Part shown: positions 25,649 through 27,836 of the stretch, piece after piece
Layout: every line of letters starts with the position of its first letter
Numbering within the stretch: position 1 is the first letter of the stretch
DNA from: a virus
Lineage: Duplodnaviria; Heunggongvirae; Uroviricota; Caudoviricetes
Reading direction: 5' to 3' (one strand)
IMG/VR virus record: IMGVR_UViG_2537561604_000012
DNA: 30,216 nucleotides
Program-made: the position numbers and the translations under genes
Notes under the pieces: model-generated
The model's input: only the letters and a program-made list of their open reading frames with translations
Told to the model about the DNA's origin: nothing
Databases searched by the model: none

Positions 25649-26165
25649 TGGCGAGGCTATCCAGCTGAAAAACATGCGGGTGACTGTTTCACAGCAATTT
25701 CAGGATAAAGATCAGTCCGGCCAGACCAGCGCCACAACAAAATCAGAGCAGGGAGCAAAGGGAAAGGAACTGCGGATCAGCGGTGAAATACCTTTTAAAC
25801 AGCCTGAAATACTGAAGCGTATTTTTGAGCTTGCCAGCGCTACCGATGCCAGTGGTAATCGTCAAAAGTACCGTGTGGCGCATGAAGTTGCCCGTGCTGT
25901 TAATTTTCGTGAAGCAACGTTCAGCGGAATGCTGGATGCACCCCAGCAGGACGGGAAAATGTCCTGGCTGGTGACGTTCACACTGGCGGAACATATCAGC
26001 GTGCAGGAAAAGCGAGAGGCCAGAGCAACAGGTAAGACGACCGCAAAAAAACAGACTGCCGGTAGTGCGGGACAGGCCGGTGGCCAGTCTGCCGGAGAAG
26101 ATGAAGAAAAACTGACGTGGTTTGAACGCAAGGTGCTGAAGCCCGTCAATGATGCTTTGGGTTAA
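25620..26165 (+). CDS. Hypothetical protein (181 aa), presumably tail-associated
   Basis: ATG 25620, AAGGG upstream; Lys/Gln-rich low-complexity C-terminus; function unknown. Confidence 0.4.
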   Translation: MTSIPTLALNGEAIQLKNMRVTVSQQFQDKDQSGQTSATTKSEQGAKGKELRISGEIPFKQPEILKRIFELASATDASGNRQKYRVAHEVARAVNFREATFSGMLDAPQQDGKMSWLVTFTLAEHISVQEKREARATGKTTAKKQTAGSAGQAGGQSAGEDEEKLTWFERKVLKPVNDALG

Positions 26166-26872
26166 TGATGAAACCAGTAAAACGCCTTTACCTTTCAACG
26201 GATGAAGTTCACCTGGTGGATGCCAGCCTGGTACTGGAGCTGAACAGCTGCGGCCGGGGCTTCATCACCGCAGAGACAACAACCGATTACACCGGAAAAC
26301 TGGTGCGGCTGGATGTAGGGTATACCGATCTGCTTTTGCGCTGGTTTACGGGGTACGTGGAGCGATCGCAGCCCGCAGAAAACGGTTTTCAGCGTCTGTT
26401 CATTCGTGAGCTGGTAGGTGTGTTTGAAAGGATGTGGCCGTGCTCATTTCAACATCCAACTTTACGCGAGGTTGCCAGCTGGCTGGAAGAAAACAGTGGT
26501 ATCTCGGTCAGTGTGCCTGATGCACAGTACAGCGATACCCCCATCCCACATTTTACCCATAACGGTACCGGCTATCAGTTGCTGAACAATCTGGGAAGGG
26601 CGTTCAGTATCCAGGATTACATCTGGTACCAGTTGCCTGATGGTTCGCTTTACGTCGGTGGCGCAGAAAAGTCACTGTTTGCCGGTCGTCCCGTAGAAAT
26701 CCCGTCAGAGTTCAGCCAGGGGGCTGCTGGTGGTAACTCTGTGACATTACCAGTGATCCAGACTATGCGGCCAGGGGTGGAGATGAACGGTGAACGCGTG
26801 ACTAAAGTTCACCTGACTAATGACACGATGGCGATCACATGGACGCCGAGAAACCGCGCAACGGCAGATTGA
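26165..26872 (+). CDS. Putative baseplate hub protein fragment (gpD / gp27-like N-terminal region)
   Basis: 235 aa; pattern ...LDVGYTDLLLRWFTGYVE... and TLREVASWLEENSGISV resembles N-terminal part of gpD/VgrG-type hub proteins from memory; too short for a full hub, and overlaps next ORF by 53 nt. Confidence 0.35.
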   Translation: MMKPVKRLYLSTDEVHLVDASLVLELNSCGRGFITAETTTDYTGKLVRLDVGYTDLLLRWFTGYVERSQPAENGFQRLFIRELVGVFERMWPCSFQHPTLREVASWLEENSGISVSVPDAQYSDTPIPHFTHNGTGYQLLNNLGRAFSIQDYIWYQLPDGSLYVGGAEKSLFAGRPVEIPSEFSQGAAGGNSVTLPVIQTMRPGVEMNGERVTKVHLTNDTMAITWTPRNRATAD

Positions 26873-27836
26873 AAGCCATTACCCGGAACTGGCATCCGGG
26901 CTTCATTTGCCAAAGACGGCCAGAGTCGTGGCGCATTCAGAGCCAGTAAAAAGCGGTAACTTTGCCGATCCCTTCCGGCCACGTTACGCCGTGGACGTGC
27001 AACTGCTTGACGCAGACGGAAACCCGGACAATCAGACGCCTGTTTACTCAGCGGTGCCGCTGCCGGTACCAATGGCCGGGAATGATTCAGGTATGTTTCA
27101 GTTCCCGCCTGAAGGGACGCTGGTTGAGGTCGCATTCACAGGAGGCAGACCGGATAAACCCTTTATCAGGCAGACGCTGCCGGATGGCACCAGTCTGCCG
27201 GACGTTAAACCCGGTGAGCAATTACAGCAGCAGCGGGAAGAAGTATCCCTGAGGGTGACTCAGGCGGGTGACTGGGTAAGGCAGACCGATCAGACCATCA
27301 GCGAAACATCAATGGTGCGAACCGTAAAAGCCGATACAGAACAGCGCGAACTGGTCAGCCGTGAAACCACGGTGAAAGCCACGGATAAAACCACGGTACT
27401 GGGAACCGCCACATTGCTGGCCGGAGCCATCCAGCAGGTAAGCGCCGGTGATTATAGCCAGGCGGTGAAAGGTAACAGGCTGGCCAGTATTGAAGGAAAC
27501 GAAGAAACGGACATAGCAGGACAGCAGTCCACTAAAGTGGGCGGTGCTGTAGCCGTGGAGGTTGGCGAAAGTCTGACAGAGAAGATTGCCGCACTGCGTA
27601 AATCAGTGGCTGCTGGCGGTCAGCAGGTCATGGGGGCAACTGTCCATATTGGCAGTGAGAGCATCAACGCCCTGACCATGATGCTGGATACCATTGATTT
27701 ACTGGCAGAGCTTGCGCAGCAATGCGCGAACCATTCGCACCCCACCGTTGGAACTCCAACCAATGCCGCCGCGTTCACACTGACGGCGACGAAAGCCGGG
27801 CAGACCCGGAGCAAATACCAGAATATAATTGCCTGA
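26820..27836 (+). CDS. Baseplate spike / gpV (gp5 OB-fold)-like protein; start uncertain
   Basis: OB-fold-type motif VPLPVPMAGNDSGMFQFPPEGTLVEVAFTGGRPDKPFI; last gene before terminator. First ATG 26820 lacks RBS; frame opens at 26817. Confidence 0.5.
   Translation: MTRWRSHGRRETAQRQIESHYPELASGLHLPKTARVVAHSEPVKSGNFADPFRPRYAVDVQLLDADGNPDNQTPVYSAVPLPVPMAGNDSGMFQFPPEGTLVEVAFTGGRPDKPFIRQTLPDGTSLPDVKPGEQLQQQREEVSLRVTQAGDWVRQTDQTISETSMVRTVKADTEQRELVSRETTVKATDKTTVLGTATLLAGAIQQVSAGDYSQAVKGNRLASIEGNEETDIAGQQSTKVGGAVAVEVGESLTEKIAALRKSVAAGGQQVMGATVHIGSESINALTMMLDTIDLLAELAQQCANHSHPTVGTPTNAAAFTLTATKAGQTRSKYQNIIA

Follow-up and report, generated by a model that had tools for sequence, protein, structure and literature searches.

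The stretch analysed here is a 30,216-nt viral record of IMG/VR (IMGVR_UViG_2537561604_000012; Caudoviricetes), hereafter the window, to which all coordinates refer, and our subject is the locus at 26165–27836, where a hub-like and a spike-like open reading frame (ORF1 and ORF2) of a phage tail baseplate overlap in different frames (Table 1). The arrangement had been noticed from the sequence alone, and this original prediction was accurate in describing a 53-nt overlap, an ORF2 frame that opens 3 nt upstream of its first ATG and the lack of a ribosome binding site in front of it. The ATG of ORF1 overlaps the stop codon of the upstream gene (TAATG), and after native residue 233 two out-of-frame residues (A, D) precede a TGA, the C-terminal end reading ...MAITWTPRNRATAD before the stop. 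The frame of ORF2 opens at 26817, directly after a TGA (26814–26816) and 3 nt upstream of its only ATG. Its product begins with MTRWRSHGRRETAQRQIESHYPEL..., of which residues 1–12 (MTRWRSHGRRET) are out-of-frame sequence; native reading resumes at 26856 (AQRQIESHYPEL...) and continues, in this order, through a linker helix, an oligonucleotide/oligosaccharide-binding (OB) fold, a beta-helix and the tip. Pairing with the anti-Shine–Dalgarno (anti-SD) sequence upstream of 26820 amounted to −0.4 kcal/mol, the worst value among the starts tested, compared with a window-wide background median of −3.0 kcal/mol and −3.0 to −12.8 kcal/mol for the other late genes. Two non-ATG starts for ORF2 (TTG 26907 and GTG 26928) were rejected, as they would remove the conserved YPELASGLHLPK segment.

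Table 1. Positions of the hub–spike locus, its parts and neighbouring features in the window.
Feature	Position	Strand	Description
ORF1	26165–26872	+	ATG start, 235 aa; complete N-terminal hub domain, native residues 1–233
ORF2	26820–27836	+	ATG start, 338 aa; complete native spike half from 26856
Two-frame overlap	26820–26872	+	53 nt; ORF2 in the +1 frame relative to ORF1
Deletion junction	26856–26864	+	Lone surviving 9-bp repeat GCGCAACGG, from alignment to intact alleles
Conserved core of the gpV/gp5/VgrG-type OB-fold domain	27057–27167	+	ORF2 residues 80–116; Pfam Phage_base_V (PF04717), 24.2 bits (cut-off 23.8)
gp5-type triple-stranded beta-helix segment	27369–27653	+	Intact residues 413–507; Pfam Gp5_C, 24.8 bits (cut-off 20.4)
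H-S-H motif of the spike tip	27732–27740	+	Intact H534 and H536; nearly invariant in the family
Upstream partner gene	25620–26165	+	181 aa, HP1 ORF34-type baseplate complex protein; Pfam PF25759, E = 3.7e-54
Intrinsic terminator at the end of the late tail operon	27849–27871	+	GCCCGCATAATGCGGGC then TTTTTT
Integrase	297–1337	-	Left part of the prophage

Aligning the locus to intact homologues, as the original prediction had advised, located the cause of the frame change. DNA alignments placed a single clean gap of 32 nt in the window, bordered by GCGCAACGG. The sequence of intact alleles is GAGAAACC-GCGCAACGG-GTAAACCTTTGCAGAAAACACCG-GCGCAACGG-CAGATTG, and that of the window is GAGAAACC-GCGCAACGG-CAGATTG. 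The window has lost a repeat copy and the 23-nt spacer, 32 nt in all (the codons of GKPLQKTP and another 8 nt), so that GAGAAACCGCGCAACGGCAGATTG is the junction sequence of the window allele and the spacer GTAAACCTTTGCAGAAAACACCG the mark of the intact one. The two-copy pattern GCGCAACGG-N23-GCGCAACGG, in which the copies lie 32 bp apart from start to start, was present in 15 of the 15 intact close loci examined and in 11 IMG/VR contigs. The missing segment thus consists of one repeat copy and the spacer between identical direct repeats, the footprint by which slippage or microhomology-mediated deletion is recognised. In the intact reading, the first copy, (C)GC-GCA-ACG, gives R-A-T and the second, GCG-CAA-CGG, gives A-Q-R, and because the copies are read in different frames their collapse gives a +1 shift. 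The ORF2 ATG sits 36 nt upstream of the junction. In a structure model of the intact protein, the deleted residues fall in a linker with no secondary structure (pLDDT, the predicted local distance difference test score, ~70–75); ORF1 retains the last hub strand (MAITWT), and nothing from the linker helix (AQRQIESHYPELASG) onwards is missing from ORF2.

Megablast assigned the region to ESSI-2-like temperate myoviruses (Peduoviridae, Quadragintavirus), with 95–96% identity to Escherichia phages ESSI2_ev015, ev129, ev239 and ev040. The locus is the same gene as HP1 orf35 and the ESSI-2-type 'baseplate protein' (phrog_2258), for example YP_009877566.1 of ESSI2_ev015, to which each of the two halves is 96–98% identical. 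Both halves match the family profile end to end (ORF1 at profile positions 1–233, E = 2e-122; ORF2 at 240–544, E = 8e-140; the intact ev015 protein at 1–544, E = 2e-276), and the ORF pair is therefore not a product of chance. The gene is uninterrupted, with ~530–570 codons, in the four ESSI2_ev phages, ESSI-2, YenM_324, SI7, HP1, HP2, K139 and others (1704 nt or 567 aa in ESSI2_ev015, 1701 nt in ESSI-2, 1656 nt in Yersinia phage YenM_324), HP1 orf35 and K139 orf39 being single-gene counterparts, whereas in the window 32 nt of the hub–spike linker are missing and the gene is read in two frames, which makes it a disrupted member of the family. The gene was found in 50 of 5,426 complete E. coli genomes; the junction-spanning matches listed for these were all 32 nt longer than the window locus (e.g. 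1704 versus 1672 nt), the sole exception among the matches listed being one divergent partial match of 75% identity. More than 1,200 protein homologues were found, nearly all of 558–568 aa. When the other conserved phage genes in the window were compared with the ev015 proteins, all were full length and in a single frame, and the hub–spike gene is the only frameshifted one among ~37. We conclude, with a probability of about 0.85, that the two ORFs are the halves of one hub–spike gene of an ESSI-2/HP1-like myovirus prophage, broken by a 32-bp deletion between 9-bp repeats. This is an ordinary, recent gene-breaking lesion in a known phage baseplate gene and represents neither recoding nor a new gene arrangement.

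The intact gene encodes a VgrG-like hub–spike fusion of a phage tail, and the ~550-aa fusion offset by +1 that the original prediction had proposed is supported by the intact 567-aa homologues and by fold matches both to VgrG, Pvc8 and Afp8 and to hubs and spikes that are separate proteins. An AlphaFold model of the intact protein, built from a multiple sequence alignment of 57 diverse sequences, reached a mean pLDDT of 82 (85–95 in the hub domain); it replaced an unusable model (mean pLDDT 47) from a shallow alignment of sequences 76–92% identical to the query. The model has a hub fold of the gp27/Mu gp44/gpD type at its N-terminus, followed by an OB fold and then a gp5-type beta-helix, as in VgrG. 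Its best Foldseek matches were full-length VgrG-like spikes of extracellular contractile injection systems (eCIS) and type VI secretion systems (T6SS), namely AlgoCIS 7aef_q (1e-18) and VgrG 9jg9_G (2e-18), followed by Pvc8, Afp8, VgrS and VgrG1. About 217 hub residues superposed on the hubs of Mu gp44 and MuSo2 (325–328 modelled residues), and ORF1 matched phrog_196 'baseplate hub' with E = 1.6e-6. The original prediction had called the hub too short for the gpD/gp27 type; this stands as a measurement but not as a sign of truncation, since the hub domain has ~235 aa in all intact homologues and its shortness is native. Matches of ORF2 to Pfam comprised Phage_base_V, Gp5_C and Gp5_trimer_C. 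An OB-fold motif had been predicted ~80 residues into ORF2, which coincides with the Phage_base_V match; the structure model places the first strands of the OB fold upstream of this match, around ORF2 residue 32 (intact residues 261–268). The family profile also matched beta-helix chains of T4 gp5 (4jiv, 1k28 and others; E = 1e-7 to 1e-6) and the OB region of VgrGs. H534 and H536 were each conserved in 90% or more of the 57 diverse homologues and were invariant in 26 enterobacterial ones; this H-x-H close to the C-terminus resembles the metal-binding tip of gpV-type spikes and may form an apex of that kind, as in P2 gpV. Scores against the T6SS VgrG/TssI models TIGR03361 and TIGR01646 were 15–17 bits, compared with cut-offs of 121.8 and 186.35, which places the protein outside these families.

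Several HP1-like Peduoviridae, in four lineages, have separate hub and spike genes cut at the same linker boundary: Pseudomonas phages phi3 (hub 232 aa, spike 323 aa, overlap 16 nt) and UFJF_PfPro (234 aa, 323 aa, 28 nt), Pseudoalteromonas phage ACA1 (gp48/gp49; 234 aa, 317 aa, 28 nt) and Vibrio phages 1.202.O (gp40/gp41; 229 aa, 231 aa, 10 nt) and yong1 (gp46/gp47; 229 aa, 223 aa, 10 nt), the last two with a further 65-aa gene after the spike. In the GenBank notes of ACA1, gp48 is already identified with the N-terminal and gp49 with the C-terminal domain of HP1 orf35. In the RefSeq record of phi3 (NC_030940.1), the 232-aa hub ORF, a clear homologue of the hub half, lies unannotated upstream of the annotated 'baseplate protein' (Gp5 domain). 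As in the window, the hub of these phages ends just past the '...I-x-W' strand, the spike starts 8–12 residues before the 'FPEL' helix, and the two ORFs overlap in different frames. In all four lineages, however, the spike ATG takes its A from the end of the preceding codon and its TG from the conserved Trp codon of the hub (xxA-TGG), the spike frame is always +2 and the overlaps measure 10–28 nt; the SD sequence is strong in the Vibrio phages and weak in phi3 and PfPro (−1.7 and −2.2 kcal/mol). The window split differs from these in its +1 frame, its 53-nt overlap, its lack of an SD sequence, its 12-residue foreign leader and its ATG, which lies 7 codons upstream of the Trp codon. The original prediction had held that two separate homologous genes with the same overlap and a conserved start would speak against a broken gene, and distant relatives indeed are split at the same linker, but in another frame, at another ATG and with another overlap, and so do not explain the window locus. 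The window split is an accident at the same soft spot and not an instance of the natural one. The shared Trp-codon ATG, as judged from sequence comparison, suggests either a single split ancestral state or repeated switching between fusion and fission through small indels in the linker.

As for mechanism, the footprint suggests that replication slippage or microhomology-mediated deletion between the GCGCAACGG copies removed the 32 bp. The repeat collapse shifts the reading by +1 and makes the hub half stop after two foreign codons, and the spike half continues in the other frame, where an accidental ATG gives the appearance of a separate 338-aa ORF. ORF1 is probably still translated, given its TAATG coupling to the orf34-like gene. 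With an ATG 53 nt inside ORF1 and no SD sequence, ORF2 is likely to yield little or no spike. Without the spike, the central hub complex would fail to nucleate a normal baseplate, and from its sequence the prophage is probably defective, or strongly impaired, in tail building; the hub–spike locus appears to be a young pseudogene in an otherwise intact prophage. Several points weigh against this reading. Loss of function is inferred from the sequence, and the break falls in a linker that is unstructured in the model and leaves both folded halves complete. Related phages are functional with hub and spike encoded separately and the division at the same point, and the spikes of phi3 and PfPro likewise have weak SD sequences. 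By our own reckoning only about three copies of each protein are needed per virion, so that leaky initiation could suffice. In addition, the only three contigs that share the allele, all from Logan assemblies, may come from a single isolate or clone.

The exact 235-aa and 338-aa products were found only in these read-based assemblies, in three contigs of different lengths, the longest of 79 kb, and a contig from SRR436787 was 100% identical to window 23165–29872 (6.7 kb), junction included. The junction 35-mer had no match in exact scans of IMG/VR, GTDB (one genome per species) and the JGI metagenomes. The nearest complete genome found by BLAST, E. coli Combat13F7 (NZ_CP019245.1), retains the 32 nt between flanks that are 99.8–99.97% identical. 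Such rarity, possibly confined to one isolate, would fit a sequencing or assembly artefact in which the 32 nt are really present and were lost in assembly. We regard this as very improbable: a loss of 32 nt is atypical for a base-calling error, a 9-bp repeat is by our own reasoning far shorter than assembler k-mers and should not collapse, and the window agrees with an independent read-based contig across the junction. On the first two of these grounds the deletion is taken as genuine; it is present in the DNA of the strain, it is recent, and the allele is confined to a single strain or clone. A single-base sequencing indel, one of the causes offered in the original prediction, was thus rejected in favour of a 32-nt deletion between direct repeats, reproduced in three contigs. 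Programmed +1 ribosomal frameshifting, a second proposed cause, would join ORF1 to ORF2 into a fusion of ~556 aa. The +1 offset fits this idea, a shift anywhere in 26817–26869 would give a near-native protein, and a rare AGA codon lies within the overlap. However, the two-frame arrangement was made by a very recent deletion and is not conserved: close relatives use one frame, so that no recoding signal could have been selected, and in relatives further off the split falls in another frame, with two separate overlapping genes annotated. Moreover, the 53-nt overlap contained no X XXY YYZ slippery heptamer, no homopolymer run of four or more nucleotides and no prfB-like motif, and the last sense codon and stop of ORF1 (GAT TGA A) are unlike the CUU-UGA context of prfB. 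Programmed frameshifting, +1 or −1, was therefore rejected as very unlikely. The third proposed cause, genuine overlapping genes with a non-ATG start, likewise fails for the window lineage, in which every close relative has one gene.

A more serious competitor is a tolerated de novo gene fission, in which ORF1 would serve as the hub, ORF2 would be made from ATG 26820 by SD-independent initiation or by termination–reinitiation, and the two would assemble non-covalently. The completeness of both halves, the cut in a flexible linker, the natural two-gene forms in four lineages and the absence of a strong SD sequence in natural Pseudomonas spikes all favour it, as do the intact remainder of the prophage and the match of ORF2 to a family of stand-alone spikes (phrog_4011, E = 7e-74). 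The window locus would then be a fission caught in the act, with functional tails built from two polypeptides and the two-gene state recreated independently in a different frame. We consider this unlikely, both as an explanation of the locus and as a claim about its function, because the natural splits use only the +2 frame, the conserved Trp-codon ATG and short overlaps, whereas ORF2 starts 53 nt inside ORF1 with the worst SD score of all starts tested and carries 12 foreign N-terminal residues, and because the allele is private and absent from the other collections searched, which gives no sign of maintenance by selection. A gene broken by deletion remains our preferred reading of the locus.

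With CI, CII, replication, head and tail genes besides the integrase, the window amounts to a complete E. coli prophage of the ESSI-2/HP1-like type (Peduoviridae), and its left end matches the mntS side of the E. coli chromosome. In keeping with the synteny of the family, the hub–spike locus is the last late tail gene, after the genes for the tail fibre, fibre assembly and the orf33-like and orf34-like proteins. The 181-aa orf34-like gene is intact (98% identical to ev015 gp02 across its full length) and is translationally coupled to ORF1. Phages with the intact hub–spike gene have been isolated as infectious virions from infant gut viromes (PMC6969025). For the orf33-like gene, the longest ORF (24887–25648) starts at 24887, and the ev015 homologue together with a strong SD pairing of −10.8 kcal/mol favours the ATG at 24923 (241 aa). 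Between the 85-aa tail assembly chaperone gene (18232–18486) and the tape measure gene (18677) lie ~190 nt without gene annotation, where a P2 E/E'-type −1 frameshift extension is usually located. Integrase (57%), CI (70%) and Cox (66%) were far less similar to their ESSI2_ev015 counterparts than the structural genes (97–100%), a divergence at window 297–2274 that indicates a putatively swapped immunity/integration module. At 28200–30216, just past the tail operon terminator, the GC content falls from ~0.56 to 0.33–0.42, and the ORFs, all on the minus strand, encode a 238-aa protein with no Pfam match (28353–29069), a 54-aa Q/P-rich protein (29526–29690) and a DUF6338 protein (29683–30207). 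This block is common to the window and Combat13F7 and could be prophage cargo or a neighbouring island. The prophage of Combat13F7 (76653–86199) is the same one, occupies an identical chromosomal site and has lost ~23 kb, window 3163 being joined to 26319; the join holds 37 nt matching window 20016–20052, with an overlap of a few nt with both flanks. The record annotates the resulting chimera of 579 aa as a 'hypothetical protein'; most of the hub and the entire spike form its C-terminal end. By sequence comparison, the window and Combat13F7 appear to carry sister prophages decaying by different deletions.

For annotation purposes, ORF1 and ORF2 are best entered as a single disrupted (frameshifted) hub–spike baseplate gene rather than as two genes or a recoding site, and the prophage should be flagged as probably tail-defective despite its complete look. 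Searches of the literature on HP1 orf35 and ESSI-2 yielded little beyond the origin of the ESSI2_ev phages; the text of one paper does not discuss the split, whereas its GenBank notes (ACA1) do. HP1-like Peduoviridae exist in fused and split hub–spike forms, joined or cut at one short linker, and the window locus illustrates how readily one form can be converted into the other by a small indel. The fused form of the window lineage has the same architecture as T6SS VgrG and the eCIS spikes (Pvc8, Afp8, AlgoCIS and Streptomyces CIS VgrG-like proteins), but sequence identity to these is only 11–15%, its hub is shorter (~235 aa) and it belongs to the tail of a temperate phage and not to a secretion system. 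In Mu (gp44 and gp45), P2 (gpD and gpV) and the R2 pyocin, by contrast, hub and spike invariably come from separate genes, the hubs being ~100 residues larger, whereas in the intact form of the window lineage hub and spike are fused.

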